From: an uncultured Spirochaetota bacterium
Lineage (GTDB): Bacteria; Spirochaetota; Brevinematia; Brevinematales; JAOACQ01
Direction of reading: 5' to 3'
NCBI GenBank assembly: GCA_963835575.1
Contig: CAWIGG010000004.1
Coordinates: 128,001-192,000, forward strand
DNA: 64,000 nt
In this document: one piece after another, positions 1 to 30,866 of the stretch
Numbering within the stretch: position 1 is the first letter of the stretch
How the letters are laid out: each line of letters begins with the position of its first letter
Notes under the pieces: model-generated
Told to the model about the DNA's origin: nothing
Seen by the model: only the letters and a program-made list of their open reading frames with translations
The model's database searches: none
Made by a program: the position numbers and the translations under genes

Positions 1-99
1 TGTGACAATGGGCGCATGCCATGAAGGGTATTCCTTTTTTAACAGGGACAACATCGCCGTTACAGTTTCCGTAGAAGTCAGGGCGCGCATATTTCTTTC

Positions 100-13479: not shown

Positions 13480-15234
13480 ATGAAATTTCAAAAATCAAAT
13501 TTACTTTTTATCATGATCCTTCTGTTTCTTTTTAACAGCGCTCAGACATGGCCGGCCGGTAAAAGCGCCGAGCCGTTCGGCTCGAAAGACGCCGTCAGGG
13601 GCGGGGAACTCTCCCTCCGGGTCAATGATTTTCCCAAATCATTCAATTATTTTGTCAATAACGCCTCTGACGCCTCTGAGGTTTTTGCCGCAGTCTACGA
13701 TACGCTTTTAGAAATGGACCCGACAACACTTGAATTCCAGCCTCTTCTGGCAAAATCCTGGACCATCTCAAAAGATAAAAAGGAATTCACTTTTATATTG
13801 GACCCCTCGGCAAAATGGGCCGACGGAAAGCCCGTTACGGCAGAGGATGTAAAATTCACCTATGATGTCATCATGGACACAAACAACATGACCATTGTCC
13901 AGCGTATGGGGTACAGCCGGTTTTATCCGCCGGTCATTCTAGATTCCCATTCCATAAAATTCACGGCAAAAATGGTCCATTTCAACAATTTTGTCAACCT
14001 GGCCGGTTTTACCGTACTGCCGAAACACCTTTTTGAAGGAAAGGATTTCAACAAGAGCTTTAATATGAACCTGCCGGCCGGCAGCGGCCCTTATATTTTA
14101 AGCGAGGTCCGTGAAGGCCGCTATTACACGCTCACTCGCCGGAAAGACTACTGGGCAGATTCCCTGCCGTCGCACCGCGGCACTTATAATTTCGAGAGGA
14201 TCAAGTACAAAGTCATCCGTGATGACAACGTGGCATTCGAAGGCTTTAAAAAAGGCGATTTCGACATGATCGCAGACGATATATCGGCCAAGCGCTGGGC
14301 AACCGAAACCGGATCGGAACCCTTCCAGAAAAACTGGATTGTCAAGCATAAGGTCTATAATTATTATCCGCGCGGTTTTTCCGGCATCGCGCTGAATTTA
14401 AGAAAGCCGCTCTTTCAGGATATCCGTGTCAGGAAAGCGCTCTTTATGCTGTTAGACAGGAAGGACCTGATTGAAAAGATCATGTATAACCAGTATGAAC
14501 CTCTTTCGTCCTACTGGCCGTCTTTATACGGTCCGAAGGGCGGGAATAATCCGGTCAGCTACGATCCGGAAAAAGCCAAAAAACTCCTCCGTGAAGCGGG
14601 TTATACAAAATTGGACAGGGAAGGCTATCTCATCAATAAAAAGGGCGAAAGGATGGAATTCACTTTGTCCTATTCAGGCGATAGCTTTGAGAAGCACCTG
14701 ACGCTTTATGCCGATTCTTGCCGGCAGGCGGGGGTTAAAATCAATCTGGAACTGTTGTCATGGGCGACACTATTAAAGAAGATGGAACAGTACAATTTTG
14801 ACTCTCTGATCATAGCCTGGAGCACATCCCTTTTTGAAGACCCTGAACAGCTCTGGCATTCCCGGTACGCTGACGTACCGGGCGGCAGCGACCTTCCAGG
14901 ATTTAAAAACAAAAAAGTGGACGCCTATATCGATTCCCTGCCCCCCCTATTTGATGCGGATGAAAGAATAAACATCATTAAGAATATTGATAAAATCATT
15001 TATGAGGAAACCCCATACATCTTAATGTGGGGCGCGAATTACTCACGCCTGCTCTACAAAAACATCTTCGGGATGCCGAAAACATTCCTTTCAAAATACG
15101 GCTCCACACACGACGTCATCAACTACTGGTGGTTTGACCCGGAAAAAGAAAAAAAATACGATGAAGCGAAAAAGAATAACATCCCGCTTCCCCCCGAACC
15201 GGTTGAAGTGTATTACGATAAACTGGCGAAGTAA
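13480..15234 (+). CDS. Peptide ABC transporter substrate-binding protein (family 5, YejA-like)
   Basis: AKWADGKPVTAEDVKFT, GSGPY, DIRVRKAL family-5 SBP motifs. Confidence 0.9.
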   Translation: MKFQKSNLLFIMILLFLFNSAQTWPAGKSAEPFGSKDAVRGGELSLRVNDFPKSFNYFVNNASDASEVFAAVYDTLLEMDPTTLEFQPLLAKSWTISKDKKEFTFILDPSAKWADGKPVTAEDVKFTYDVIMDTNNMTIVQRMGYSRFYPPVILDSHSIKFTAKMVHFNNFVNLAGFTVLPKHLFEGKDFNKSFNMNLPAGSGPYILSEVREGRYYTLTRRKDYWADSLPSHRGTYNFERIKYKVIRDDNVAFEGFKKGDFDMIADDISAKRWATETGSEPFQKNWIVKHKVYNYYPRGFSGIALNLRKPLFQDIRVRKALFMLLDRKDLIEKIMYNQYEPLSSYWPSLYGPKGGNNPVSYDPEKAKKLLREAGYTKLDREGYLINKKGERMEFTLSYSGDSFEKHLTLYADSCRQAGVKINLELLSWATLLKKMEQYNFDSLIIAWSTSLFEDPEQLWHSRYADVPGGSDLPGFKNKKVDAYIDSLPPLFDADERINIIKNIDKIIYEETPYILMWGANYSRLLYKNIFGMPKTFLSKYGSTHDVINYWWFDPEKEKKYDEAKKNNIPLPPEPVEVYYDKLAK

Positions 15235-15251
15235 AGGAATCTTTTAGTAAA

Positions 15252-15362
15252 GGCTTCACCCCCATCCGTTCTCCATCCCTCGGCAGACGACAGGCTCACT
15301 GCAAGCTTCGCTCGGGAACCGTTGGAGAGGGGTGCCGAGCCTTGCGAGGCGGGGTGAGGCAT
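15252..15362. repeat. Palindromic element, family D (CCTCACCCC...CTCTCC/GGAGAGG...GGGGTGAGG), with an internal family-C segment
   Basis: 15323-15362 is the reverse complement of 58100-58139 with one mismatch. Confidence 0.8.
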
Positions 15363-15443
15363 GCCGGTCCTGCCTTATTGGGATTGTCCTAATAAAGGAT
15401 AGATAATTCAAATTCATTTTCATTCATATAAACACTACATTTC

Positions 15444-15472
15444 TTGATTATCACAATAAGTGCGGCTATAAT
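15444..15472 (+). promoter_or_regulatory. Sigma70-type promoter, copy 2
   Basis: TTGATT-17-TATAAT in the same flanking context. Confidence 0.65.
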
Positions 15473-15502
15473 TTTTCACTTCTTAATACCGGGAGATTTT
15501 TC

Positions 15503-17266
15503 ATGAAAGCCAGCGATGTAAAATATTTTCTATATGTTTCTTTTTTCCTATTACTTTACGCTGTCATCTGGAGCAACCCCGCCGGGATCAGGACAGCCGG
15601 CGATCCGTCAGCCGTCCGCGGCGGGACGCTGAACCTTCATTCCCCGGAATTCCCGAAATCGTTCAATCTTTTTGTCAATAACGCGGCGGACGCGGCGGAC
15701 GTTTTTTACCTTGTCTATGACACGCTTCTTAATGTCAATCCCGGCACCCTGGAATTCGAACCGCTGATCGCGAGCGCCTGGAACGTGTCCGCCGACAAAA
15801 AAGTTTTTACCTTCACCATCGACAAACGCGCCCGCTGGTCCGACGGCAAACCGGTTACGGCGCAGGACGTTCTTTTTACATACGACACGATCATGAATAA
15901 AAGCAACCTGACCTCGGTCCAGCGCCTCAGCTTCAGCCGCTTTGAGGAACCTCAAATCATCAGCGACCGGATAATCCGGTTCAAAGCTCTTACCGTCCAC
16001 TATAACAACCTGGTCACCCTGGCTGAAATGAATATACTTCCTAAGCACCTTTATGAAGGAAAGGATTTTAATAAAAGCTTCAATATGGAACTGCCGGGGT
16101 CCAGCGGGCCTTACAGCCTTTCCGAAGTGAAGGAAGGCCGCTACTATGTCCTTGCCAGGCGGAAGGATTACTGGGCCGATGTCCTTCCATGCCGGAGATA
16201 TATGTTCAATTTCGATTTAATCAAATACAAAATCATCCGGGACAATAACGTTTCGTTCGAAGCATTTAAAAAAGGGGAATTCGACGTCTACTCAAAGGAA
16301 GTTTCAGATGTCACCCCCAAGCGCTGGGTAACGGAAACAGATTCCGAAAAATTCAAAAAAAACTATATCATCAAACAGAAAATATATAATCATGCTCCCC
16401 GCGGGTTCCGGGGACTGGCACTCAATATGAGAAATCCCCTTTTCAAGGACATCAGGGTCAGGGAGGCCCTTTTCAGGCTGCTGGACAGAAAGACCATAAC
16501 GGAGAAACTCCTCTACGGTTTTTATAAGCCCCTGACCTCCTACTGGCCGAACATCAGCGAAAACAGGGAAGTCCCTTACGACCCGCCAGTGGCCCGGAAG
16601 CTCCTCAGGGATGCGGGCTATACAAGGCTCGATAAGGACGGATATCTATTGAACGGACGGGGAGAGAAACTGGAATTTACGGTCCTTTCCAGAATGGATG
16701 AAAACAGAGAAAAATACCTGACTTTTTTCGCCGAGTCATGCAGAAAGGCCGGAGTGAAAGTAAACCTTGAATTGACATCATGGTCCACTCTGATAAAAAA
16801 AATGGACGAGTACAAATTCGACGCCGTTGATATAGCCTGGACCGGCACGCTTTTCGATGACCCTGAACAGCTCTGGCATTCCAGGCATAAGAACGAGACC
16901 GGCGGCAGCGACCTGCCGGGATACAGCAGCCCTCAGGTCGACGCCCTGATCGATTCCCTCCCGTCTGTTTTCAGCGCGAAGGAAAGAGAAAAAAAAACAA
17001 GAATGATCGATAAGATCATTTATAATGACGTCCCGTACCTCCTTTACTGGTGGCAGGATTATTATGCCCTGTTTTATAAAAACGAGTTCGGCATGCCCAA
17101 AAACGCAGTATCCAGGTTCGGTTCCGGTACATACATGATCGAAACGGAGATCATTAATTACTGGTGGTTTGATCCTGCCCGGGCGGAAAAACTTCGGGAA
17201 ACTGAAAAAACCGGCGCGGCGCTGAACCCCGAACCGCCGGAAATATATTATGATAAAATAAGATAA
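15503..17266 (+). CDS. Peptide ABC transporter substrate-binding protein, tandem paralogue
   Basis: Colinear with 13480-15234 (FPKSFN, GKPVTA, DPEQLWHS, INYWWFDP shared). Confidence 0.9.
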   Translation: MKASDVKYFLYVSFFLLLYAVIWSNPAGIRTAGDPSAVRGGTLNLHSPEFPKSFNLFVNNAADAADVFYLVYDTLLNVNPGTLEFEPLIASAWNVSADKKVFTFTIDKRARWSDGKPVTAQDVLFTYDTIMNKSNLTSVQRLSFSRFEEPQIISDRIIRFKALTVHYNNLVTLAEMNILPKHLYEGKDFNKSFNMELPGSSGPYSLSEVKEGRYYVLARRKDYWADVLPCRRYMFNFDLIKYKIIRDNNVSFEAFKKGEFDVYSKEVSDVTPKRWVTETDSEKFKKNYIIKQKIYNHAPRGFRGLALNMRNPLFKDIRVREALFRLLDRKTITEKLLYGFYKPLTSYWPNISENREVPYDPPVARKLLRDAGYTRLDKDGYLLNGRGEKLEFTVLSRMDENREKYLTFFAESCRKAGVKVNLELTSWSTLIKKMDEYKFDAVDIAWTGTLFDDPEQLWHSRHKNETGGSDLPGYSSPQVDALIDSLPSVFSAKEREKKTRMIDKIIYNDVPYLLYWWQDYYALFYKNEFGMPKNAVSRFGSGTYMIETEIINYWWFDPARAEKLRETEKTGAALNPEPPEIYYDKIR

Positions 17267-17270
17267 ATCC

Positions 17271-17495
17271 AAACACCAAGATCACCAAGTGCAATAAGAG
17301 CCACGAACGAGGTAAAGGGAACCACAGATTGCACAGATTTCACTGATATTTCTTTGTTGTACAGACCCCAATAAGGCAGGATAGACGGCAGGCTCACTAC
17401 AAGTTTTCAGGATATGACAGGATTCTCAGTATATTGTTATCTGGAATTTTTGGAAGAAAGGTCAGCCACGGAATGACACGAAAGCACACGAAAAT
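17271..17495. repeat. Stack of repeat half-elements at the left edge of the metal island
   Basis: ACCACAGATTGCACAGATT, GACCCCAAT, CGGCAGGCTCACTACAAGT, CAGGATATGACAGGATT, GCCACGGAATGACACGAAAGCACACGAAA. Confidence 0.6.
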
Positions 17496-17717
17496 AAAAA
17501 TTTAATAATAATCCACTATCCTTAATATTCCGAATCGTTATTATGGGGAGATATGAGTAGAAAAAGAACATTGCTTCTCCGCAAAAAGGTTGCCGGTTTT
17601 TTCCCGGCAAAAAAAAGATACTGCCATGTTCTCGTATTTTGCCGTGTCTTATTTGCAATTTTAGAGTAAATATTTTACACTTGAAACAGCCGTACTGATT
17701 CGCTCTAAAATAACAAT

Positions 17718-18152
17718 ATGCCTTCCAGGCAGAAATTGGTAAAAGAAAAGATGCCGCATAAAAAATTTATCAGTAAAGTATACAAAACCACTCGCAGTTT
17801 TTTCAAGGTATATTTTAAAAAAATTGTCCTTCTCATTACTTTTATTGCTTTCATTTCGATTTCCGTATTTTCACATCACACTCACCATGATGAGGATCTT
17901 CAAATAAAGAATTACACCGCCCATTGTCTTAAAGTGCAAAGCGCGTCTCTTCAAGACAAAGATGGGGATTTTTGTATCGCCTGTTTCTGGCAGAGCATTG
18001 CCCAATCGACTGGCATTTTCGACAAGATCGTATTACCCTATGAAAACCCTGTTCAGAATATTTTCAAACCTTCACTAAAATTCCATTCTGAAAAAATTAT
18101 TCTATCATTCCAGAACAGGGCCCCTCCGGCCCGGGTTTCCGCCGGCTGTTAA
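17718..18152 (+). CDS. DUF2946-like leader protein (TM/signal, His-rich, CxxC, C-terminal RAPP); candidate arrest peptide A
   Basis: Hydrophobic segment, HHTHHD, CIAC, then RAPP (18117-18128); paralogue at 21798-22154; start may be ATG 17751. Confidence 0.75.
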   Translation: MPSRQKLVKEKMPHKKFISKVYKTTRSFFKVYFKKIVLLITFIAFISISVFSHHTHHDEDLQIKNYTAHCLKVQSASLQDKDGDFCIACFWQSIAQSTGIFDKIVLPYENPVQNIFKPSLKFHSEKIILSFQNRAPPARVSAGC

Positions 18153-18347
18153 AAAATCAATGAATATTTCATTTTCCTGCTTCGCTGTCTACAGGTCAGC
18201 TTATTCATGATCTATTAATAGTAGCGGCATAAATTTAAATATGCACTGACTGCTGTTCACTGAATAAAAAGCGGTGAATTGCGCGGGAAAAAGGCCGTTT
18301 TATGAACAGCCTTTCAAACCTAATAAATACTTTGGAGGATTACAACT

Positions 18348-19664
18348 ATGAAAAGAAACAGGATCGTTTTTACAGCCGCCGGCATCTTGATGCTTTCAGT
18401 CCTTTTTACGGGATGCGCGGCGAAAAAGCAGCCGTTCGGGTTTCAAGCCCTCAAGATAAACGGCCGGTTCGTGGATGTTTCCATTTTTAACCAGGAATAC
18501 CAGAGATTTTTCGAAAATAACCGGAGAAACGCCCTGGTAATGCGGACGCCGGATGACGAGCGCAGGGCGGAGGTCCTTGATACTGTCATTGAAAGGGAAA
18601 TCGTTGAAAATTACCTGACCAACCGCAGGGATATAGAAGTCACCGACAAGGAAGTAACGGATTTTCTCAACCGCTATGTCAAGCCGAGCATGTGTATGAA
18701 TATCAATGAGGATGATCCGGTTCTCTTGAGTATTCAGGATGTTGTTGTCAGCCAGCAGACGTTTTCCTCTATAAAATCCTACCTGCTGAGTCTGAAAATC
18801 ATACCTGAAATAGCCGCGAAGTATAATATTAAAGCCGATCCGAAAGAAGTAAAGAAGGAATATAAGCGTCAGTTTAAGGATAATTATCTTGTCTTGGGGA
18901 GGCATATAGTCCTGCCGAAATGGCAGATAAAGCTCTCCGGTGAGCTTGCGGAAAAGATGAAGAAAGAAACAGATATCGGGGACCTTGTCCGGAAATATTC
19001 CATTGATCCTTACTCTAAGAATAAAGGCGGAGCGATGGGAAACATCGCCCTTGCCGCGATAACGCCCGATTTTGCGAAAAAAATGCGGACCGTCAGGCCC
19101 GGGGAAATACTCGGACCTTACCAGGTTTCATACGGAATAGAGATCATCCGGATTGATGATGTTATCCATTTTAATCATCCTGAAAATGAGATAGAAAAAA
19201 CCATTCTGATGAAAAATTTTCATTCTTCACCTGTTTATCAAGACTGGGTTGGATCGCTGAAAGCCGGGGTTAATATAGAAATCACCGACCCGGTTTTAAA
19301 AGCATACTATTTTTTCAAAACCGGAAAATACGCGGAGGCCGCTCCCCTGTTCATTAAATTATATCAGTCCGGGAAATCACGCGATGCGCTGGACCTGGCA
19401 GCGGCCTGCTTTAAAAAAGCCGGCGACGGGGAAGAGCTTGTCCGCTGGAGCGGGGAAGGAATAAGAACGTTTCCCGGGTTCAGTCTGAATTATTATTTGT
19501 CCCAGGCCTCCGGTTTTATGATGCTTCAAAAAACAAATGAATGCCTTCTTGCCATGAAAAACGCGGAGAAAGCGGCCGGCGGACAAATCCTGAAGGAAAT
19601 AGCCGATCAATACTTTGAATTGGGTTTGACCAATGAAGGAAGTAAATATACTAACAGAAGATAA
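18348..19664 (+). CDS. SurA/PrsA-like peptidyl-prolyl isomerase (PpiC) lipoprotein with a C-terminal TPR-like region
   Basis: Lipobox-like LFTGC; SurA-like N domain; KYSIDPYSKNKGGAMG and GPYQVSYGIEII parvulin motifs; GGAGG RBS. Confidence 0.7.
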   Translation: MKRNRIVFTAAGILMLSVLFTGCAAKKQPFGFQALKINGRFVDVSIFNQEYQRFFENNRRNALVMRTPDDERRAEVLDTVIEREIVENYLTNRRDIEVTDKEVTDFLNRYVKPSMCMNINEDDPVLLSIQDVVVSQQTFSSIKSYLLSLKIIPEIAAKYNIKADPKEVKKEYKRQFKDNYLVLGRHIVLPKWQIKLSGELAEKMKKETDIGDLVRKYSIDPYSKNKGGAMGNIALAAITPDFAKKMRTVRPGEILGPYQVSYGIEIIRIDDVIHFNHPENEIEKTILMKNFHSSPVYQDWVGSLKAGVNIEITDPVLKAYYFFKTGKYAEAAPLFIKLYQSGKSRDALDLAAACFKKAGDGEELVRWSGEGIRTFPGFSLNYYLSQASGFMMLQKTNECLLAMKNAEKAAGGQILKEIADQYFELGLTNEGSKYTNRR

Positions 19665-19758
19665 TATCCGGCTGACTATTAAGCCTTTAGACGATAACTG
19701 TTAATTCAAAGCTTCCGCCGGAAGACAAAGAGAGGGACGGTAAAACAAAGAATTATTT

Positions 19759-19791
19759 GGCAGTTCTAAAAATGTGAGTTTTAGAACTGCC
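19759..19791. repeat. Short hairpin, family E (GGCAGTTCTAAAA...TTTTAGAACTGCC)
   Basis: IR between convergent genes; related copies at 22271, 40859 and 41002, half copy at 46825. Confidence 0.8.
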
Positions 19792-19957
19792 CTTGATTTT
19801 GTTTCAGGAATAATAACCTTTGATGATTCAAATATGCGTGTGCCCTAAAAGACAATGATCCAGGCAATTGTACGCCTTTTTTATTAACATGCAGATTATT
19901 CGTTTCAGAGCCGCTCCCTTTCTTAACCCGGCACGAGCATTCAACAAATCAGACTAA

Positions 19958-20692
19958 TTAATATACAAACGGTTCCTTCTCTTTAAAATCGGACATAAAA
20001 GGGTTATCAGGCTCTTTGTCCGGAATTATTTTATCCGCCGCGAACATAAAATCTTCCTTGATTTCAGTGTTCGGAGTGTCCGCGATTACCGCATCCTTTT
20101 CCAGATTGTCCGGCTTAAAAGGGACAAAGTGTCCATAAACTTTCACCCAGTCTCCCATCTTATATTGACTGATATCATCCTGTTTTATCCTCAGGCCGTA
20201 AGCGCAGGAATCGTAAAAACAGCAGACCATCACGACCCTCGCGACAACAATATTACTGATTTGATCCAGTTTGCTGTTTCTGTAAATAGAGCCCCTGAAA
20301 ACGTAGTTATTTTTCCGGATGATCCCGTCCAGTTTTTTCGGCGGATTATTATAAAGTATCATAAATAGCTCGCCTAAATTGACCGGAATGTATTCCTTTC
20401 CATTCAAATTTTCCCGGGCGGCCTTTTGTACGGCATGCGATTTGACAGCCGGCGCGATTAGACAAATGATAATAAAAACTATCATCGCCAGGATCGCTGA
20501 AAATTTGACTTCAAACCGCCTGAAAAGCGTTATGACGCCGAAGAGTATCAGGAGCGCTCCGCTTCCGCCGGTCAAGAGCAAAAACTTCGGACTCAGCAAG
20601 CGGCTGTAAAATCCGCTGAAAATCAAAAATAAAATATAACCTCCCAGGACCAGAAAAGAAATGCTGCCGATAATCGATAAAAATTTTTTCAT
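19958..20692 (-). CDS. TIGR03943/DUF1980-like membrane protein (permease partner)
   Basis: N-terminal TM helices, ARVVMVCCFYDS and WVKVYG motifs; directly downstream of a DUF318-type permease. Confidence 0.7.
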   Translation of the reverse strand: MKKFLSIIGSISFLVLGGYILFLIFSGFYSRLLSPKFLLLTGGSGALLILFGVITLFRRFEVKFSAILAMIVFIIICLIAPAVKSHAVQKAARENLNGKEYIPVNLGELFMILYNNPPKKLDGIIRKNNYVFRGSIYRNSKLDQISNIVVARVVMVCCFYDSCAYGLRIKQDDISQYKMGDWVKVYGHFVPFKPDNLEKDAVIADTPNTEIKEDFMFAADKIIPDKEPDNPFMSDFKEKEPFVY

Positions 20693-20696
20693 AATT

Positions 20697-21629
20697 TCAC
20701 CTCAGGATTAAACCCAGTATATTACACACAAAGAAAATAAGGATAAACGGTATAACTGTTATGAGCGCCAGCGCCTTCTTTTTAAAAGTACCGGAATACA
20801 TCAATAGAAGCTTTAAATCCACCACCGGACCGATGGTTACAAAAGCCAGTTGAGAAAACGGCGAAAATTTCATGAAGGAAGCCGCGACAAAAGCGTCCGC
20901 CTCAGAACAGATCGAGAGCAATACCGCCAGGACCATCATAAACAGGATGGAAAGCAATGGATTCAACCCCCAGAGCATGACTACGCTTTTCGGTACAAGC
21001 ACGCTGAAGGTTGAAGCGAGGATCGCGCCCAAAATCAGATATTTCGACATCTCCAGAAATTCCCGGGAAGAATGCCTGATGATCAACAGGATTTTTTCCG
21101 GCCATGTCCGCGCTTCAATGTCCTCACAGAGGCAAAGGCCTTCATGACGCTTATGGCCGTGTTCATGTTCATCTTCTCTATCATGGTCTTTTAGTTTATC
21201 GCTATCCAGAAAGATATTGCCCTGCCCGGAAAGAACAAGACCTACTACTAAAGCTGTCAAGGCCGAAATACCGATCCTGCCCAGGACCATCCAGATATTG
21301 TAGCGGAAAGCGACATAGGTCGCCGCGATGACTATCGGATTGATAACAGGCGCTGAAAACATATAAACTACTGCAAGATAAGACGGCAGACCTTTCTTAA
21401 CCATCTTCTTCGCGATCGGAATAACTCCGCATTCGCAGGTAGGCAGCAAGAACCCCAGAAAGATGCTGATGAATAAGCCGGAAGCCTTCCTCTGAAACAG
21501 TTTTCCCCGGAACAGCTTTTCCGGTAAAAACACCTCTATAACCGATCCCAGTATCGAACCGATCAGCAGAAACGGCAGCGCTTCCAGGACTATAGCGGCT
21601 ACATCAAAAATAAATATATTGAATTTCAA
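20697..21629 (-). CDS. DUF318/ArsP-family permease with a His-rich loop (putative metal transporter)
   Basis: EALPF, PTCECGVIP, APVINP, HEHGHKRH loop, SICSEADAF, GPVVDLK; TTG 21629 after GAGG. Confidence 0.85.
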   Translation of the reverse strand: MKFNIFIFDVAAIVLEALPFLLIGSILGSVIEVFLPEKLFRGKLFQRKASGLFISIFLGFLLPTCECGVIPIAKKMVKKGLPSYLAVVYMFSAPVINPIVIAATYVAFRYNIWMVLGRIGISALTALVVGLVLSGQGNIFLDSDKLKDHDREDEHEHGHKRHEGLCLCEDIEARTWPEKILLIIRHSSREFLEMSKYLILGAILASTFSVLVPKSVVMLWGLNPLLSILFMMVLAVLLSICSEADAFVAASFMKFSPFSQLAFVTIGPVVDLKLLLMYSGTFKKKALALITVIPFILIFFVCNILGLILR

Positions 21630-21797
21630 CAAATTTAACCTCAACCTGCCAAGGATAAACTCAAAACAATCAGTTTTTAGAATTATCCCGGCTTTTAAAT
21701 TATTTAACTGTTTCAATGAATTTAGCGGCGGCAAATACCGGCGCCCGGATGGCAGTTCCAGTTCCGGAAATACGGATTTCTGGAGCTGACCTCATTT

Positions 21798-22154
21798 TCA
21801 AACAAGCGGAGGCGCCCTCATCTGAAAATCAAAGAAATGTTTTTGAAACTGATAGGACTCTGTAATTTTAATAAAATGCTGACCTGGATTTTCATAACTT
21901 AAAAGGATTTTGTTAAAACCGCCTGTTGAAACAACGATACCGGCCCATAAACAGGCAATACAGATATGATCATCGGCGTCTTCATAAGCGGATGCTGTTT
22001 TTTTAAAAACAGCCGTTTTATTCAAATTGGAACAGCCATAACAATGCTCATGGCAGGTGTGTTCAGAAAAAACTGAAAGGGTTATGAAAGAAAACAACAA
22101 GAACAGGAGAAGGAATTTATTTAAAATAATCTTAACTGGCATATATTTCCTCAT
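21798..22154 (-). CDS. DUF2946-like leader protein (TM, His/Cys-rich, CxxC, RAPP); candidate arrest peptide B
   Basis: Hydrophobic segment, EHTCHEHC, CIAC, RAPP (21807-21818) two residues before the stop. Confidence 0.78.
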   Translation of the reverse strand: MRKYMPVKIILNKFLLLFLLFSFITLSVFSEHTCHEHCYGCSNLNKTAVFKKTASAYEDADDHICIACLWAGIVVSTGGFNKILLSYENPGQHFIKITESYQFQKHFFDFQMRAPPLV

Positions 22155-22231: not shown

Positions 22232-22260
22232 ATTATAATTTTGGGTAATTGGAATGTCAA
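22232..22260 (-). promoter_or_regulatory. Consensus sigma70 promoter for leader B-permease operon
   Basis: TTGACA-17-TATAAT on the minus strand. Confidence 0.75.
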
Positions 22261-22376: not shown

Positions 22377-22451
22377 AAACGCCAATTGTTTGCATTTTAC
22401 TTGACACCAGGGGAATTTTTAAATATAATTATAATGCGATTGATTTGCATT
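22377..22451 (+). promoter_or_regulatory. Consensus sigma70 promoter of the znu-like operon, flanked by two putative Fur/Zur-type boxes
   Basis: TTGACA(22401)-17-TATAAT(22424); imperfect IRs AATGCGATT-G-ATTTGCATT (22433-22451) and AAACGCCAAT-T-GTTTGCATTT (from ~22377). Confidence 0.65.
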
Positions 22452-22529
22452 TTGATTTAGCATTCTGGAGGGCTTGTTCTATGCTAAACGCGAATGATAG
22501 ACAAACTAAAAATGAAAGAGAAGAGCGAC

Positions 22530-22784
22530 ATGAAAATTAAAAATGCATTGGAACATTTAAATGAATTATTGCCGTTAAAAGAAAGGCAAATACAGCTTGC
22601 TCAACCGTCCAAGGGTATTCATAGAGCAATATTACGATTATTTGTAGAACGGGGACATATTTTGAATAAAAAGGAAATATCCGATATGCTTGGCGGAATT
22701 GATGCCATACAAGTATTAACCCGGCTAAGCGAGGATGATTTAATTGTATTGGATGAAACTACCAATGAACCAATTTTAAATTAA
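22530..22784 (+). pseudogene. Truncated fragment resembling the N-terminal region of MerB (alkylmercury lyase)-family proteins
   Basis: LLPLKERQ...HRAILRLF...LTRLSEDDLIVLD ends where the GAYPF motif and catalytic domain would be expected. Confidence 0.5.
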
Positions 22785-22803
22785 AGATTAAGAGGAGTTT
22801 GTC

Positions 22804-23520
22804 ATGAAATGTATCCTTTATTTCTACGCGGTTATAGTGCCTTTATTGTTAGCAGCTGCGGTCCGCGCTTTTCCTTATTCGTTTAATGCGTATAACGGCA
22901 TGACGGGTAAAGGGGTCGTATCATTCGACCCCACATTGTCTTTTCCCATCTCACCGAAATTCGGCACGGCGGCCGACATTATCGGTTCCTATGGTCTTAC
23001 TCCCAATTTCGACCTCTTTGCGGACGTTGCGGACTTCAATCTTGCGCCGGAAGCGGGTTATGCCTATTCCTGGATTATGCCTCGTTTTGAGTTTTTGCCG
23101 AACAACATTATTGCCTTACAGTTGCAGTTTAATAACACACAGCCTATGAGCTACAACATTATGCCGCAGTACCACCTGTTTTATGAAAATGATTCTATGG
23201 CGTTTGAATTCAATGGTATCGCCACGATTCCCATAAATAATCCGTATTCTTCAACGGCCATAAGCGGAATTATCGCTCCCGTATGGAAGGCTGTTAAAGG
23301 TATTCTTTATCCTTTCATCGAAATTGATCCATCTTACGTTTTTGGTGATAAAGGCGGCTTTCACCTGAATATCGTGCCGGGAGTCTGGCTGGGCATACCG
23401 GATACCCCGCATCAGTTTTGCCTCGCGTTTACCTTGGCAGATGTTACTTCCGGGGCTTTAGGTTTTGGTGTTAATTTTTGGTATTCCATATCGTTTGTAC
23501 CGGATACAACTAACAAATAA
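22804..23520 (+). CDS. Secreted hypothetical protein, possible outer-membrane beta-barrel
   Basis: Signal peptide (AVRA/F); many aromatic alternating strands; GAGGAG RBS; 15 nt upstream of znuA. Confidence 0.6.
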   Translation: MKCILYFYAVIVPLLLAAAVRAFPYSFNAYNGMTGKGVVSFDPTLSFPISPKFGTAADIIGSYGLTPNFDLFADVADFNLAPEAGYAYSWIMPRFEFLPNNIIALQLQFNNTQPMSYNIMPQYHLFYENDSMAFEFNGIATIPINNPYSSTAISGIIAPVWKAVKGILYPFIEIDPSYVFGDKGGFHLNIVPGVWLGIPDTPHQFCLAFTLADVTSGALGFGVNFWYSISFVPDTTNK

Positions 23521-23535
23521 AACGGAGGAAAATAT

Positions 23536-24438
23536 ATGAAAAGATTAGTTATCACATTACTCGGTGCGGGTTTACTTCTGCTTGCCGGTCAGTCGTTTGC
23601 GGAAGCGCAAAAAAAGACAATAGTCGTCACCTACACGGTTTTGGGTTCGCTGGTCAAAGAACTGGTCGGCGATTCTTTTGAAGTAAAAACATCCATCCCC
23701 AACGGACTCGACGTCCATGATCGGGAACCGTCGGCAAAGGACATCGAAACAATCACTAAAGCCGATCTTATTGTACAGAACGGCCTGGACCTGGAGGGTG
23801 GCTTGCAGAAGGCTCTCAAGCAGGCTAAAGATGCCGGGGTAAAATTTTTCACGGCATCTGACTACATAACCGTCAGGCATGTCGGGCAGGGAGAGGGTAT
23901 CCCCGGAGACGATCCTGATCAGGCCCTTGGAGCGGCAGATCCCCATATCTGGCTGGATCCGGTCAATATGAAATCTGTAATCCTGGCTCTGACCAAATAC
24001 ATAAAGGATAACTACTCCATCGACCTCTCTAAAAACTCATCGAAACTTACCGCAAAGCTTGATTCTCTTGATGATTCCATTAAAAAGAAAGTGTTGTCCA
24101 TTTCCCCGGGAAAAAGGAAACTGGTCACGGGACATGAATCCATGGGATATTTCGCTCAGCGTTACGGCTTTAAACTGGTGGGGGCGGTCATTCCGAGCCT
24201 TTCCACCGAAGGCCAAGTATCGGCCTCTGATATGACGGCCCTGAAAAAGCTCATCGCGGAAAACAATGTATCGGTCATTTTTATTGAATTAGGAACTCCT
24301 GAAAAAGTAGCTAAAATACTCGCCAGCGAGGCGCACGTAAAATCAGTACCGTTGATTACCCACTACCTTCTTTCGGATAATAATTATTTCACCTTAATGA
24401 ATACAATGGTTGATAAGATTACCCAGAGTTTAAAATAA
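23536..24438 (+). CDS. znuA: Zn/Mn ABC transporter substrate-binding protein
   Basis: DVHDREPS, NGLDLE, DPHIWLDP, TGHESMGYFAQRYG. Confidence 0.88.
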   Translation: MKRLVITLLGAGLLLLAGQSFAEAQKKTIVVTYTVLGSLVKELVGDSFEVKTSIPNGLDVHDREPSAKDIETITKADLIVQNGLDLEGGLQKALKQAKDAGVKFFTASDYITVRHVGQGEGIPGDDPDQALGAADPHIWLDPVNMKSVILALTKYIKDNYSIDLSKNSSKLTAKLDSLDDSIKKKVLSISPGKRKLVTGHESMGYFAQRYGFKLVGAVIPSLSTEGQVSASDMTALKKLIAENNVSVIFIELGTPEKVAKILASEAHVKSVPLITHYLLSDNNYFTLMNTMVDKITQSLK

Positions 24439-24449
24439 AATCCAGATAC

Positions 24450-24477
24450 GGCTAATTCTTTCATGAAAGAATTAGCC
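24450..24477 (+). terminator. Perfect 28-bp palindrome after znuA (attenuator or mRNA-stabilising hairpin)
   Basis: GGCTAATTCTTTCA|TGAAAGAATTAGCC followed by ATGTTTTTATT. Confidence 0.55.
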
Positions 24478-24537
24478 ATGTTTTTATTGCCGTATTGAGG
24501 ACACAGGTTGATATTATTAACGGGAGTTTGAAATAAT

Positions 24538-25416
24538 ATGGAACAATTCATCACGCCTTTTTTATCGAATCAATTTATGATCAACGCCCTTCTTGCCGGA
24601 ATTTTGGTATCAATAGCCTGCGGGATCGTGGGCACCTTTATGATACTGCGCGGCCTGGCGTTCATAGGAGACGCGCTGGCCCATGGAGTGCTTCCCGGAG
24701 TCGCCGGAGCAATGCTCCTGGGTTTTCCAGGGCTTTTAGGCGCCGCCGCCGGAAGCCTGCTTATGATCGGAGGGATCAGCCTCATTACCAGAAAGACCCG
24801 CTTATCATCGGATTCCGCCATAGGGCTCCTCTTTGTCGGAATGCTCGCGCTGGGCGTTGTGATAGTCTCCCGTTCCAACTCCTTCTCCGGCGATCTGATC
24901 AATGTGCTTTTCGGTGAAATATTGGGTATATCGCGCAGCGATATTTTCATCCAGCTGGGAGCGACCGTTTTCCTGGGGATAACGGCTTACATTTTCCGGA
25001 GGCCTTTTCTTCTCCTCTGCTTCAGCCAGGAACAGGCCCAGGTTTCCGGTTTTTCCGCGAAGCTCTATCATGGCATCATGCTCCTGATGATCGCGCTGAC
25101 GGTCATCGTATCATTCCAGACAGTCGGCACGCTTCTGGTCTTCGGTATGCTGCTGGCTCCGGCCGGCACCAGCGCCCTGTTTTCAAGGCGTATGGGTACT
25201 ATGATGTTTCTGGCGTCGATCACCGGAATGGTATCGGTCTATCTGGGACTCCTGGCAAGTTATCATTTTAATTTCGCGGCCGGCGCGTCCATTACTCTGA
25301 CAGCGACGGTTATTTTTTTTATATCGCTCATTCTGACCCAGGTTTTCCGCCCAAAAAGAAAAACCCGGCCGGATAAGGCGGATTCTCAATCAGAAACCCT
25401 GGAGGCAAAAGAATGA
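24538..25416 (+). CDS. znuB: Zn/Mn ABC transporter permease
   Basis: AFIGDALAHGVLPG, LFGEILG, VGTLLV motifs of ABC-3 permeases. Confidence 0.9.
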   Translation: MEQFITPFLSNQFMINALLAGILVSIACGIVGTFMILRGLAFIGDALAHGVLPGVAGAMLLGFPGLLGAAAGSLLMIGGISLITRKTRLSSDSAIGLLFVGMLALGVVIVSRSNSFSGDLINVLFGEILGISRSDIFIQLGATVFLGITAYIFRRPFLLLCFSQEQAQVSGFSAKLYHGIMLLMIALTVIVSFQTVGTLLVFGMLLAPAGTSALFSRRMGTMMFLASITGMVSVYLGLLASYHFNFAAGASITLTATVIFFISLILTQVFRPKRKTRPDKADSQSETLEAKE

Positions 25417-26198
25417 ATGAATCTTTCATAACGGCCCGGGATTTGACCATCGGTTACGGCCGCCAGGTGATTATATCCGGTATCAACTTCACGCTTGAGC
25501 CTGGTAAAACCCTGGCCCTGGTAGGGGTCAACGGCTCCGGAAAATCCACGCTCCTGAAAACAATAGCCGGGCTTTTGCCTAAGATAGAAGGAAATATTAC
25601 CGTATTCGGCCGGGAGCCGGGCAAAACTCCTGTCCGTATTGCTTATTTAAGTCAGTTCAACCCCGCCGGTTTTCTATTGCCGCTGCGCGCCATTGATGTG
25701 GTGCGGATGGGACGATTTTCCGCGTTAGGCCTTCTGGGCCGGATGAAAAAAGAAGACGAGGATATAGTACGGAATTCAATGGACTTTATGGGCGTGCCGC
25801 ATCTGGCGGACAAAGCATTGAGTACGCTGTCCGGCGGACAGCGCCAGAGGGTCTTTCTCGCTCATGTCCTGGCCCGGCAGGCTGATCTGTTCCTTCTGGA
25901 CGAACCGGCATCCGGCCTGGATGTGCCGGGGAACGAGCTCTACAAAAAAGCCGTCGCCGCCATACTGAAACGGGGAGCCTCGCTGGTCATAGCGACCCAC
26001 AATATCAAAGAAGCAAGCATTTGCGATCAGGCCATGCTTTTAGCCCAGCGGGTTGTGACATATGGTCCAGGTAATTCTGTTTTAACTCCGGAAACGCTAT
26101 TATCGACTTTCGGCATTATCGCGAGGATGGAAGCCGGTCAGGTTGTTGTAGTTGAAAAGGAACATGGATGCGATCACGGCGAGGATAATTGCGATTGA
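25413..26198 (+). CDS. znuC: Zn/Mn ABC transporter ATP-binding protein
   Basis: GVNGSGKS, LSGGQRQR, LLDEP; His/Cys tail HGCDH. Confidence 0.9.
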   Translation: MNESFITARDLTIGYGRQVIISGINFTLEPGKTLALVGVNGSGKSTLLKTIAGLLPKIEGNITVFGREPGKTPVRIAYLSQFNPAGFLLPLRAIDVVRMGRFSALGLLGRMKKEDEDIVRNSMDFMGVPHLADKALSTLSGGQRQRVFLAHVLARQADLFLLDEPASGLDVPGNELYKKAVAAILKRGASLVIATHNIKEASICDQAMLLAQRVVTYGPGNSVLTPETLLSTFGIIARMEAGQVVVVEKEHGCDHGEDNCD

Positions 26199-26578
26199 CG
26201 GCATTTTTCACATATACCGGTGAAATAGAGCGAGTGATGAAGGATCCGGTAGTGATATTTCTCTTCAATAGAATGAACGTAATTTTCTATAAAGCACTCG
26301 TCGAGCCGGATAAACTGATGACAGTTTTCACAATGAATGAAATGAATATGCCTGTCGTTTGTCGCGTAATAATACCGCATGTTCTCCTCGGTACTGCATT
26401 GGATCGAAAACCCTTCGATTAACTGCTGCGATTCCAGATATTTTAAAGCGCGGTATATAGTCGATAAATCGACTTTTTTACCATAAAGCTCATCTATCTC
26501 ACCGGCACTCAGAGGATTTGTCGACTTATTCAAGATATCCAGGATTTCTTTTCTGATATTGGTAAATGGTTTCCTCAT
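26174..26578 (-). CDS. Fur-family regulator (probably Zur)
   Basis: LSTIYRAL, HIHFIHCENC, C-terminal CEKC; adjacent to znuABC. Confidence 0.88.
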   Translation of the reverse strand: MRKPFTNIRKEILDILNKSTNPLSAGEIDELYGKKVDLSTIYRALKYLESQQLIEGFSIQCSTEENMRYYYATNDRHIHFIHCENCHQFIRLDECFIENYVHSIEEKYHYRILHHSLYFTGICEKCRQSQLSSP

Positions 26579-27176: not shown

Positions 27177-27261
27177 TTTACACCTTATTTACAAGTGGTT
27201 ATATCCAGTAAAAAAGGCTTCAATTTGACATATAATGAATTCTTGATTGGAGTATATTGTC

Positions 27262-28294
27262 ATGCGGGCTTATTTTTTAAAAAGGCTTCTGCTCATCATC
27301 CCGACAATGTTCGGCATAACAATAGCGTGCTTTCTGATCATGCAGGCCGTACCCGGCGGGCCTGTCGAACAGGCGATCCAGAAAATGCGGCGCCTCTCGC
27401 AGGGCGAGGGCGGGGCATCGCCCGGCACAGGCACCGTCCAGCAGAATATGACGCAGGAAGAAATAGAGAATATAAAAAAATACTATGGTTTTGATAAACC
27501 CATCCTGGTCCGCTATTTTCTCTGGCTGGGAAAGCTTGTCCGGTTCGACCTCGGCACTTCCTACTCCTATGAAAAGCCGGTTGCGGACGTCATTTTCAGC
27601 CGTCTTCCCATTTCGCTCACTTTCGGCATCACAAGCCTGTTTTTCACATACCTGATCTGCATCCCGCTCGGTGTGAAAAAAGCCCTTTCGCATGGGCTGA
27701 TCTTCGATCAGGTTTCGAGTGTTCTTGTTTTTATAGGCTATTCCATCCCGTCGTTTGTTCTGGGAGTTGTTCTGATCGTCCTTTTCGGAGGCGGCAGCTT
27801 CCTTAATATATTCCCCATCAGCGGCTTTGTGTCCGATAATTTCGAACAGCTTTCCTTTTTCGGCAAGATCGGCGATTATATCTCCCATATGTTCCTGCCT
27901 GTTCTGTGCTACACGGTCGGCAGTTTCGCCACCATCACGCTCCTGATGAAAAATTCCATGATGGAACAGCTCAACCAGGACTATATGCGCACGGCGCTTG
28001 CCAAGGGCCTGTCGTACCGCCAGGCAGTTCTGCGCCACGCCCTGAGGAATTCCCTGATCCCGATCGCCACCAATATCGGCATGATCATCGGCGTGATACT
28101 TTCCGGCTCTTTTTCTGATCGAAACAATCTTTACAATAGACGGCATGGGCCTCCTGGGCTACGAATCGATCATCAACCGCGATTATCCCGTGGCGCTGGG
28201 TTTGATCGTGATATCCAGCCTTCTTGTTCTCGTCGGCAGGATCATTTCCGACTTCTGCCTCGTGCTTGTCGATCCCCGCATCAGGTTTCAATAG
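27262..28294 (+). pseudogene. Peptide ABC transporter permease (YejB/OppB-like) with a +1 frameshift
   Basis: Extra T in the T5 run at 28110-28114; removing it restores SGSFLIETIFTIDGMG...VDPRIRFQ*; may be a sequencing error. Confidence 0.85.
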
Positions 28295-28303
28295 GAGGCG
28301 GAC

Positions 28304-29341
28304 ATGCAGATATCACCGGTCACTCTTAAAAGGCTCCAGAAATTCCAGAAGATGAAGCGGGCTTCCGTTTCATTCTGGATATTGATTGTCCTATTTGTCA
28401 TTTCCCTTTTTGCCGATATTCTTGCCAACGACAAGCCTGTTTTTTTAAGTTATAAAGGAAAGCTTTTTTTCCCTATTTTCACATTTTATTCCGGCGATCA
28501 TTTCGGGTTGAAGACGACAGACGTCCCGAATTACAAAGAGCTCAATAAAAGCGCGGACTTTGAAAAGGGCAGCGGCAATTTTATGGTTTTCCCGCTGATA
28601 CCCTACGGATATAACGAGTCCCTTCTTTCTCTGCCCGGCAATCCCCCGACTCCGCCGACCTGGCAGAACCCGCTGGGGACCGATGACCGCGGGCGGGACA
28701 TCCTGACGCGGCTTCTCTACGGCTTCCGCATCAGCTTCAGCTTCGCGCTTCTCATCACGTTCGCCAGCATGGCGCTCGGCACTTTCATCGGGGCGATCCA
28801 GGGATTTTTCGGCGGGGCTTTCGATATCACAATGCAGAGGCTGATCGAGATCCTCTCGGCCCTGCCTTTCCTCTACATCGTCATCATCATCGGCAGTTCA
28901 CTGGGGACAAGCTTTGTGATACTCCTGTTCCTCTTTACCATTTTTGACTGGATCGATATCTCTTATTTTATCCGCTCCGAGTTTTATAAACTCCGCGAGG
29001 TCCCTTTTGTTGAGGCATCGCGGTCGCTGGGCGCGAAAAACGCGCAGATCATGTTCGGGCATATCCTGCCCAACGCCCTGACGCCGATCATTACCTTTCT
29101 TCCTTTTTACCTGATCGGGGCGATATTCTCGCTTTCAGCCCTGGATTTCCTAGGATTCGGACTGCCCGCGCCGACGCCGAGCATCGGAGAGCTCCTGCGC
29201 CAGGGCATGTCGAACCTCACAAGCTACTGGCTGTCGCTTTACCCGGCCGCGTTTTTATTTTTCATTCTTCTTCTCATAGCCTTTGTCGGCGAGGGCGTAC
29301 GGGACGCTTTCGACCCGAAGGAATATTATAGGATGGAGTAA
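28304..29341 (+). CDS. Peptide ABC transporter permease (YejE/OppC-like)
   Basis: LGTDDRGRD, EASRSLGA, HILPNAL, GEGVRDAFDP. Confidence 0.92.
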   Translation: MQISPVTLKRLQKFQKMKRASVSFWILIVLFVISLFADILANDKPVFLSYKGKLFFPIFTFYSGDHFGLKTTDVPNYKELNKSADFEKGSGNFMVFPLIPYGYNESLLSLPGNPPTPPTWQNPLGTDDRGRDILTRLLYGFRISFSFALLITFASMALGTFIGAIQGFFGGAFDITMQRLIEILSALPFLYIVIIIGSSLGTSFVILLFLFTIFDWIDISYFIRSEFYKLREVPFVEASRSLGAKNAQIMFGHILPNALTPIITFLPFYLIGAIFSLSALDFLGFGLPAPTPSIGELLRQGMSNLTSYWLSLYPAAFLFFILLLIAFVGEGVRDAFDPKEYYRME

Positions 29342-29374
29342 GACATAGAATTTGGAACATAATTAGAAACGGGG

Positions 29375-29875
29375 TAATCCGCTAATACACGCGAATAAAC
29401 GCGAAGTAAAAAGAAGGAATAATTAATGCCTGATGAATTGATATTCAAAGATGAAGTGTTCAAAATAATCGGTTGTGCAATAGATGTCCAGAATGAATTG
29501 GGAATTGGTTTTTTAGAAGCAGTTTATCAGGAAGCTCTTGAGATCGAATTAAAAAAGCAACATGTGCCTTTTGAATCTCAAAAACGAATAAAAATTATTT
29601 ATAAAGAACAGATTCTTCAGAATGAATATATTGCTGATTTAGTATGTTTCAGCAATATTATAATCGAGCTTAAGGCTGAAGAAAAGCTGACATCCATAGA
29701 TAAATCTCAATTGCCGAATTATTTGAAGGCAACCGGCTTGCCTTTAGGACTGTTGATAAACTTTGGGGCAAAAAATAAATTGGAATGGAAAAGATTTGCC
29801 CGCACTAATTGCAGTAAGAATAAACAGTAAATTTAAACATATTATTAGCGTGACTTCGCGTGGCTTCGCGGAAGA
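29375..29875. mobile_element. Putative GxxExxY cassette bounded by 10-nt-periodic inverted repeats (family B)
   Basis: Left arm TCCGCTAATACACGCGAATAAACGCGAA, right arm TTAGCGTGACTTCGCGTGGCTTCGCGGA; 21/28 match as an IR; interrupts an ABC operon. Confidence 0.55.
29426..29830 (+). CDS. GxxExxY protein (PD-(D/E)xK-like nuclease family)
   Basis: GIGFLEAVYQEAL, ADLV, IIELKA, GLLINFG; visibly more AT-rich than its neighbours. Confidence 0.92.
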   Translation: MPDELIFKDEVFKIIGCAIDVQNELGIGFLEAVYQEALEIELKKQHVPFESQKRIKIIYKEQILQNEYIADLVCFSNIIIELKAEEKLTSIDKSQLPNYLKATGLPLGLLINFGAKNKLEWKRFARTNCSKNKQ

Positions 29876-29893
29876 CCTCACAAAGGAATTGTT

Positions 29894-30866
29894 ATGGAAA
29901 AAAACATCCTGGAAATACAGGACCTGACGGTCGAATTCGAGCTTGAGAACAGTTCTATCCGCGCCGTCGATGATGTGACGCTTGACATCGGCCCGTCCGA
30001 AGTGCTCGGTTTGGTCGGCGAATCCGGCTGCGGAAAAAGCACAACCGCTTTGTCAATTTTAAGGCTTATTCCATCGCCTCCCGGCAGAATTTCCGGCGGC
30101 AGAATACTCTGGAAGAAAAATGACCTCCTGGAACTTCCGATTGACCGGATGCGCGCGGTCCGGGGCCGTGAAATCAGCATGATCTTTCAGGAGCCCCTGT
30201 CCAGCTTTAATCCGGTCCAGAAAATCGGGAAGCAGGTTGAAGAGACTCTCTTGATCCATGAAAATATTGAAAAAGAAAGCACCCGGGACAGGGTCATCAA
30301 GATGTTCGGGCATGCGGGCCTCAAAAACCCGGAGCAGGTTTATGAATCCTATCCCCATGAACTATCCGGCGGCATGCGCCAGCGCGCCATGATCGCCATG
30401 GCCCTGATCCTGCAGACCCGAGCTCCTTATCGCCGACGAGCCGACAACGGCGCTGGATGTCACCATCCAGGCCCAGATCCTGAGCCTTATCAAGGACCTG
30501 CAGGAGGAGAACAGAATGTCGGTCCTTCTGATCACGCATAACCTGGGCATCGTCGCGCAGGTGGCTGACAGGGTGGCCGTGATGTACACGGGAAAGATCA
30601 TTGAGAACTCTCCCGTTTCCGATCTCTTTAAAAATCCCCTGCATCCCTATACGCAGGCGCTCCTGAAATCCGTCCCCAACCCGAACAGGAAGGGAAAACT
30701 GTATGCCATACCCGGAACCATCCCGAACATGGCCGATCTGCCGGGCGGCTGTCCGTTCCATCCCCGGTGTGAATCCGCCATGCCGGTCTGCAGGGAAAAA
30801 TTCCCGGACACAAAAGAAATGGAGAAAGGGCACAGCACGGCCTGCTGGCTTTACCTGGAGAATTGA
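29894..30866 (+). pseudogene. Peptide ABC transporter ATP-binding protein (OppD/DppD-like) with a +1 frameshift
   Basis: GESGCGKS...LSGGMRQR, then an extra base near 30413-30416; the shifted frame continues [10 protein letters not shown]...HPYTQAL...CPFHPRC. Confidence 0.85.

Follow-up and report, generated by a model that had tools for sequence, protein, structure and literature searches.

Two small paralogous open reading frames (ORFs) in a 64,000-nucleotide (nt) stretch of an uncultured Spirochaetota genome, called the window below, look like distant cousins of the copper-sensing leaders CruR and CutF wired to new targets. Leader A (17718..18152, + strand; 144 amino acids (aa)) is the first gene of a unit with a PrsA-like foldase lipoprotein. 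Leader B (21798..22154, - strand; 118 aa, or 114 aa if translated from the ATG at 22142) is the first gene of a unit with a DUF318/DUF1980 permease pair. On balance, both probably act in cis as arrest leaders of the CruR/CutF type that respond to a metal, probably zinc, with downstream expression on at metal scarcity; ribosome stalling as such at their RAPP motif is highly probable. The leader class itself is published, and it is the two targets, the permease pair and the foldase lipoprotein, that are new here.

Anatomy and selection of the leaders

Leader A runs from a basic N-region through a hydrophobic segment ending in SVFS to a His patch (HHTHH), CIAC (17973-17984), 44 residues, RAPP (18117-18128) and a 7-residue tail. 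Leader B passes from a hydrophobic segment ending in SVFS through HTCHEHCYGC (His patch EHTCHEH) to CIAC (21951-21962), 44 residues, RAPP (21807-21818) and a 2-residue tail. Counting both end residues, the first CIAC cysteine and the RAPP arginine delimit a stretch of 49 residues in either leader, and the two stretches align ungapped. Through RAPP, 26 of 52 positions are identical, the two leaders have W, STG, YENP and FQxRAPP in common, and BLASTP aligns them at 39% over 109 aa (E 8e-24). A sequence-only reading of the window had placed the two ORFs at the heads of converging units and described the shared SVFS segment, His patch, CIAC, RAPP near the stop and ungapped 49-residue span; translations, layout and alignment bear all of this out. 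The hydropathy peak is 2.3-3.0 over 15 residues in all eight family sequences, and the presumed export signal may be cleaved after VFS. The predicted structure is confident only at the N-terminal helix and unstructured beyond it (mean pLDDT 49, shallow alignment).

A 31-codon ORF on the same strand as leader B (21795-21700) begins 2 nt past its stop and contains RSAP and RAPV. It could be a product of chance, re-initiation or a leader remnant.

We identified a third copy of the leader at G000:C5:250530-250964 (the C5 copy; 144 aa), before a foldase paralogue 81% identical to that in the window. It has CIAC, RAPP and a 7-residue tail. Transposase genes flank the C5 unit (G000:C5:250530-252436; L026 7531-9437), and ZIP and cation-efflux genes are found at a distance of about 7 kb.

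Database searches added five outside clusters (P0007-P0010 and P0012) from metagenome sources, mostly singletons. The spacer between CxxC and RAPP is 44 residues in 8/8 family sequences measured and in P0012, so the check on homologues proposed with the sequence-only reading upholds the distance, and CxxC is invariant in 7/7 aligned sequences. The RAPP motif did not hold throughout: it occurs in the three genome copies, P0007-P0009 and P0012, with KAPP in P0010/P0011. Among 34 other genomes of the order, a search for homologues gave a single weak match, inside a 411-aa frame. Among 400 genomes of the phylum, 32 gave weak matches (E 1e-4 or worse), and none of the 29 loci scanned was a leader. 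Three candidate loci for the outside homologues were rejected, as the matches ran antisense to another gene.

The 4.39 Mb genome, scanned in six frames for RAPP, RGPP or RAGP at most 15 residues from the stop of frames of 55-260 aa, returned only five matches, three of them the leader family. This rarity, together with purifying selection, argues that the leaders are not chance frames. Between the two A-type copies (A and C5), dN/dS falls from 0.28 over the whole leader (Fisher p 5e-5) to 0.09 within codons 84-137 (CxxC-RAPP); the value for the foldase is 0.21. Between A and B it is 0.23 over CIAC-RAPP, with synonymous sites near-saturated. RAPP and RGPP occur 0 times in the 965,407 residues of genome frames of at least 300 aa, where seven control words occur 1-6 times each; the expected counts are small, so the exclusion counts as modest evidence. 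We take the trio to be real coding genes under selection, each first in its unit.

A proposed metal-gated arrest mechanism

The ribosome exit tunnel holds about 30-40 residues. Toeprints of CruR show its arrest with the leading Pro of RAPP in the P site. In a stall of that kind here, the 44-residue spacer would put CxxC 47-50 residues from the P site, just outside the tunnel, and the His patch at a distance of about 80 residues. On this ground we read the ORFs as metal-released arrest leaders. Metal binding would fold the exposed part and pull the nascent chain free. When metal is scarce the stall would persist and the downstream gene would be expressed; when metal is plentiful the ribosome would leave and expression would stop, with Rho most likely terminating transcription in the long gap. 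The metal sensed is most likely zinc because of the permease's neighbours, the His-rich loop of the permease and the His patch of the leaders.

The gap between leader A and the foldase (18153..18347, + strand) is 195 nt long, carries GGAGGA at 18334-18339, and showed neither promoter nor terminator consensus in our scan. The gap between leader B and the permease (21630..21797, - strand) is 168 nt long and structured; like the first, it is without a consensus promoter in the scan. In the C5 copy the gap is 155 nt. A C-rich, G-poor, weakly folded stretch before the RAPP codons of leader A (18027..18116, + strand; 21 C, 6 G) is a candidate Rho loading site, and the genome encodes Rho. Among 3027 long-frame ends, the C>G stretch ranks in the top 0.4% for A, the top 4% for C5 and at 21% for B. 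Rho-dependent termination has stronger support at the foldase units than at the permease unit.

Modelled stalls shift the opening energy of the next ribosome-binding site (RBS) by less than 2 kcal/mol in A and B. The RAPP codons pair with that site at a predicted probability of 0.00-0.03 in A and B, and of 0.99 or 0.10 in C5 depending on the window folded. A switch sequestering the Shine-Dalgarno sequence was rejected as a general mechanism, pairing being predicted for the C5 copy only and in the short window only. All three leaders encode Pro-Pro as CCT-CCN; CCT makes up 27% of first Pro codons in PP.

Upstream of leader A is a promoter-like block (17647..17720, + strand) with a palindrome at 17666-17678, a -35-like hexamer at 17681 and a -10-like hexamer ending at 17711. 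The hexamer spacing of 19 is outside the range of the promoter scan, which therefore does not list this putative promoter. In the C5 copy, 73 of the 74 nt are identical, against 25% synonymous divergence. The ATG of leader A lies 6 nt past the -10-like hexamer, and its mRNA is possibly leaderless. The palindrome abuts the -35-like hexamer and is intergenic at only 2 of its 27 genomic matches, those before the A and C5 leaders; it is a possible site of some regulator. Leader B has a sigma-70 promoter (22232..22260, - strand) matching 12/12 consensus positions, 119 nt from the nearest repressor-like box.

The promoter region of the adjacent znu-type operon (22379..22450, + strand) has a perfect sigma-70 promoter at 22401-22429, flanked by ATGCAA-N5-TTGCAT-like boxes at 22379-22395 and 22434-22450. 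A perfect copy of the box precedes znuC in the genome G020, and there are two in G024. We infer that these may be Zur-type repressor sites. None occurs within 2 mismatches on either leader promoter in the window; the C5 copy has a site with 2 mismatches, one of 158 such in the genome.

Targets in relatives and alternative readings

The foldase (18348..19664, + strand; 438 aa) has Pfam matches to SurA_N and a parvulin (rotamase) domain and a weak TPR-like tail. Its NCBIfam matches are below cut-offs, and its best solved relative is PrsA (4wo7, E 5.8e-9). The permease unit encodes a DUF1980/TIGR03943-like subunit (DUF1980_C; 19958..20692, - strand; 244 aa) and a DUF318/ArsP_1 permease (20697..21629, - strand; 310 aa), both by Pfam and NCBIfam. 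Because of the comparison with orthologues, the start of the latter is most likely the TTG at 21629, not 21734. It carries a His/Asp-rich loop and CECG and CSEAD motifs; its nearest NCBIfam models, far below cut-off, are the Cu/Zn efflux SO_0444 and SaoE families. The targets had been named earlier as a PpiC-type lipoprotein and a DUF318 permease pair, and the Pfam matches (PpiC/SurA_N; ArsP_1 and DUF1980_C) agree.

Permease matches occur in 20 of 400 other phylum genomes, and 7/20 of these orthologues adjoin znu- or fur-type genes. In three of four genomes of the same genus, the pair directly follows znuC-znuB(-fur). The closest orthologue (77%), in G024, follows fur, PCuAC and SCO pieces and has no leader. 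In close relatives the pair belongs to znu/fur operons and has no leader, so in this genome the leader may have replaced control by a Zur-type repressor. The foldase occurs at five loci in 3/401 genomes, two with a leader and three without (the C2 paralogue in the same genome, G028 and G029); the C2 paralogue has its own consensus-like promoter, and the genome has two more SurA_N matches besides it. Gain of the leader at the foldase is the simpler reading, since the outgroups lack it. The foldase tree resolved neither the order of the three paralogues nor whether the two leader-headed copies are sisters.

Metal-gated arrest with expression at scarcity is favoured by the fixed spacing, the selection on CxxC-RAPP, the exclusion of RAPP from long frames, the DUF2946 cluster nearest to leader B (see below), the C>G stretches of A and C5 with Rho encoded, and the znu- or fur-type neighbours of permease orthologues. 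Three further observations point the same way. The leader B promoter itself carries no repressor-like box, and the three gaps resemble the 162 nt of CruR. In addition, a separate leader heads the same type of permease pair in G106, from another family (L104 2480-2815, - strand): a 111-aa ORF, separated from the pair by 40 nt, in which a signal-like segment is followed by CPLC, then by 43 residues and KDPP. It scored no better than its own shuffles against the leader-family profile, and would thus be an independent or very distant leader. A palindrome lies upstream of it.

Several points weigh against the same reading. No RAPP leader was found in the 1.5 kb upstream of any of the 20 permease orthologues (three out-of-context motif matches were discarded by eye), and three of the five foldase loci lack one. 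The DUF2946 (PF11162) model (gathering cut-off 23.7 bits), proposed earlier as a check, matched neither the three genome copies nor P0007 at an E limit of 10, and none of P0008-P0010 and P0012 at a limit of 1. Leader B lacks an enriched C>G stretch (21% of background). The permease RBS is predicted to lie within a local hairpin that a modelled stalled ribosome does not open, and pairing of the leader with the downstream RBS is unsupported. The foldase is not an evident zinc gene, the PCuAC and SCO fragments in G024 point to copper, and the KDPP of the G106 leader lacks the Arg. RAPP alone is also not always arresting, according to the available text of PMC12992588. The metal- or export-sensing translational switch first proposed is partly supported: the anatomy agrees with CruR/CutF on every feature tested except the Pfam model, but the leader is absent before most target orthologues.

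It is unlikely that the same arrest leaders follow CutF logic or sense another metal, maybe copper, so that metal bound during export prolongs the stall and thereby induces the targets, which would serve efflux or stress repair. CutF of Rhodobacter capsulatus is described as working in this way and needing its signal peptide (available text of bioRxiv 2025.02.05.636593). The efflux models nearest to the permease, the PCuAC and SCO genes before the pair in G024, the fit of a foldase to metal stress and the place of the C5 copy near both ZIP and cation-efflux genes are consistent with such a role. However, with 155-195 nt in between, a stalled ribosome is too far away to melt a hairpin directly, the modelled stalls in A and B barely change RBS opening, and orthologous permease pairs sit in uptake operons.

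Alternatively, the leaders might be export or folding monitors, not metal sensors, with translocation and periplasmic folding releasing the stall, leader A feeding back on the foldase, and the Cys perhaps reporting oxidative folding. We consider this still less likely. RAPP peptides are classic export monitors, in the available text of PMC10987492, and VemP release needs the periplasmic chaperone PpiD/YfgM, in that of PMC11470409; the foldase, with SurA_N, rotamase and weak TPR-like parts, follows two of the three leader copies. Such a function would nevertheless leave the permease target unexplained, as well as the fixed CxxC spacing (equal to that of CruR) and the His patch; among solved structures the foldase is closer to PrsA than to PpiD, and the genome has the leaderless foldase paralogue and the two further SurA_N matches.

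We also speculate, with little confidence, that a portable promoter-plus-leader cassette was recruited twice within this lineage. One copy would swap Zur-type repression of a zinc permease pair for co-translational zinc sensing, and the other would make a PrsA-like foldase subject to an arrest peptide released by export and folding at the translocon, a feedback loop. If so, a metal-binding nascent chain would report both metal supply and periplasmic folding capacity.

It is quite improbable that the ORFs encode small secreted proteins that bind metal and share a transcript with their neighbours, their RAPP a relic without regulatory effect. In favour, relatives have both targets working with no leader, and chance capture is possible in a genome rich in insertion sequences whose C5 copy is flanked by transposase genes. 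Against this, conservation within the leader is highest in the segment of tunnel length, RAPP is otherwise excluded from long frames, and the shallow-alignment structure model is unstructured past its N-terminal helix.

The two units converge at 19664-19958. The 294-nt gap between them has 56 blastn pieces across the genome (repeat content) and includes a 13-bp palindrome (19759..19791), a genome-wide repeat and possible terminator; this sequence and that at 17315-17353 are short repeats with dozens of copies genome-wide. Many copies of 485-aa and 561-aa transposase-like ORFs are also present in the genome. Beyond leader B, a block of genes (22494..26198, + strand) encodes a 96-aa ORF, a 238-aa exported protein and znuA-, znuB- and znuC-like genes, followed by a FUR-family regulator (26174..26578, - strand), one of four FUR matches in the genome. 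The znuABC/zur neighbourhood claimed from the sequence stands as to its Pfam matches to ZnuA, ABC-3, an ABC ATPase and a FUR-family gene, but the regulator is Zur by context only, its best NCBIfam matches being PerR/Fur, all below cut-off. The 96-aa ORF (22494-22784), at the head of the znu-type operon, is without family or structure match; it may resemble the N-terminal part of MerB. The 238-aa aromatic-rich protein (22804-23520), without Pfam or NCBIfam family and possibly a porin, is of a type that also precedes znuA in G024. In an oligopeptide ABC operon (27247-31835), whose binding-protein genes are at 13480-17266, the permease seems to be frameshifted, the ATPase is short and a PD-(D/E)XK gene is inserted. 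A FlaA gene in the window (Pfam) fits a spirochaete.

Other leaders and comparison with known systems

Nine other leaders of the form CxxC-43..45-R[AG]PP, with the same layout and spacing, occur in genomes of the phylum (L134, L151-L156, L159 and L161). These loci were partly picked by eye, with 11 regions fetched, after a pattern scan that allowed a 3-codon tail only, missed the genome's own leaders and gave mostly chance matches; they are examples, not frequencies. They precede TonB receptors (2/2 tested) or porin-like genes; L151-L156, L159 and L161 stand before TonB-dependent receptors of about 800 aa (family f15) and 420-aa porin-like genes (family f18), and none of these matches DUF2946. 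In a profile comparison with the leader family, only CxxC aligns (probability 29.7%). As PF11162 matches just one of the nine (17.3 bits), the model appears insensitive here. A pattern scan of the order found one more leader, unrelated to the family, in G024: CxxC-43-RAPP (L073 1351-1665 / L089), with a weak DUF2946 match, before porin-like and ZnuA-like genes in a stretch of 55% GC. Several genes in that stretch are frameshifted, and the G024 genome is 5% contaminated. In the Atlas feature search, which compares language-model neighbours, the top match of leader B was a DUF2946 cluster (0.96; DUF2946 on 36% of its members), and leader A matched unnamed clusters at 0.96 and a 12% DUF2946 cluster at 0.95.

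The targets had been thought undescribed for this class. They were not among the described ones in the searchable literature, but the class is already known as broad (PMC9973294, PMC12992588, in their available text) and is present elsewhere in the phylum. RAPP leaders precede many gene types in PMC12992588, whose top-30 list has no foldase or DUF318. Among 8,420 rows of leaders listed there, none has 'isomerase', 'peptidyl', 'foldase' or 'SurA', and at least 21 have 'permease', all RND subunits among those listed; zinc-regulated receptors occur. Zinc, ZnuA, permease and peptidyl-prolyl are absent from the main text of PMC9973294, whose neighbour table may hold these targets, and PMC10987492 contains no occurrence of PpiD, chaperone or CxxC. 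In the literature searched, no RAPP leader is reported ahead of a foldase or within a zinc-island setting like this one, and nothing useful turned up on the DUF318/DUF1980 pair.

Only copper sensing has been shown so far for this leader class. Two ideas are open to test here: RAPP leaders sensing zinc in place of Zur, and an arrest peptide controlling an envelope foldase. Built-in controls are at hand: in this genome, one leader family stands before two unrelated targets and the third foldase paralogue has a promoter of its own but no leader, and in relatives the permease pair belongs to a repressor-box operon. The system would, moreover, offer an initial hint of how the little-studied permease pair is regulated. 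Its reach is limited by a tiny leader family seen in context in one genome only.

Like SecM, ApdA, ApdP and VemP, the leaders have a C-terminal RAPP-type motif behind a localisation signal, and one target is an envelope folding factor. Those peptides, however, head sec/yidC genes, and a fixed-distance CxxC is not part of their description in the available text of PMC10987492, PMC11470409 and PMC12992588. The accessible text of PMC9973294 counts 5,334 CutF-like proteins, not all copper-specific, with Spirochaetota scarce. By the filters given there, the leaders have fewer than 150 aa (144, 118 and 144), PP in the last 15 residues (tails of 7, 2 and 7), a signal-like segment, and a same-strand neighbour within 1,000 nt (195, 168 and 155 nt). 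CutF differs in having CxxxC and a short stem-loop on the next RBS, a switch unsupported at A and B.

CruR (Bp2923) of Bordetella pertussis, a DUF2946/PF11162 protein, is the closer parallel in layout. In the available text of PMC9426467, its CxxC-RAPP spacing is 45 and kept within 1-2 residues, an insertion of 5 weakens regulation, its intergenic gap is 162 nt, and its RAPP stall shields the transcript from Rho until copper at CxxC releases it; the spacing argument of the sequence-only reading agrees with this (44 against 45). Toeprinting in vitro places its Pro-Pro in the P and A sites, and the Arg was irreplaceable in three peptides tested (PMC12992588, available text). The spirochaete leaders share with CruR the first position in the unit, an export signal, CxxC, RAPP near the stop, a long gap, a C>G stretch (A copies only) and a poorly structured product. 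Position and gap before a metal gene apply to leader B, with its own promoter, 168-nt gap and permease pair; leader A has the position and the gap, but its foldase is not a metal gene. They differ from CruR in lacking a match to the model, in the extra His/Cys patch, in their zinc context and in having three paralogues in one genome. Whereas the target of CruR is a TonB-dependent copper transporter, those here are a DUF318/DUF1980 permease pair and a PrsA-like foldase.

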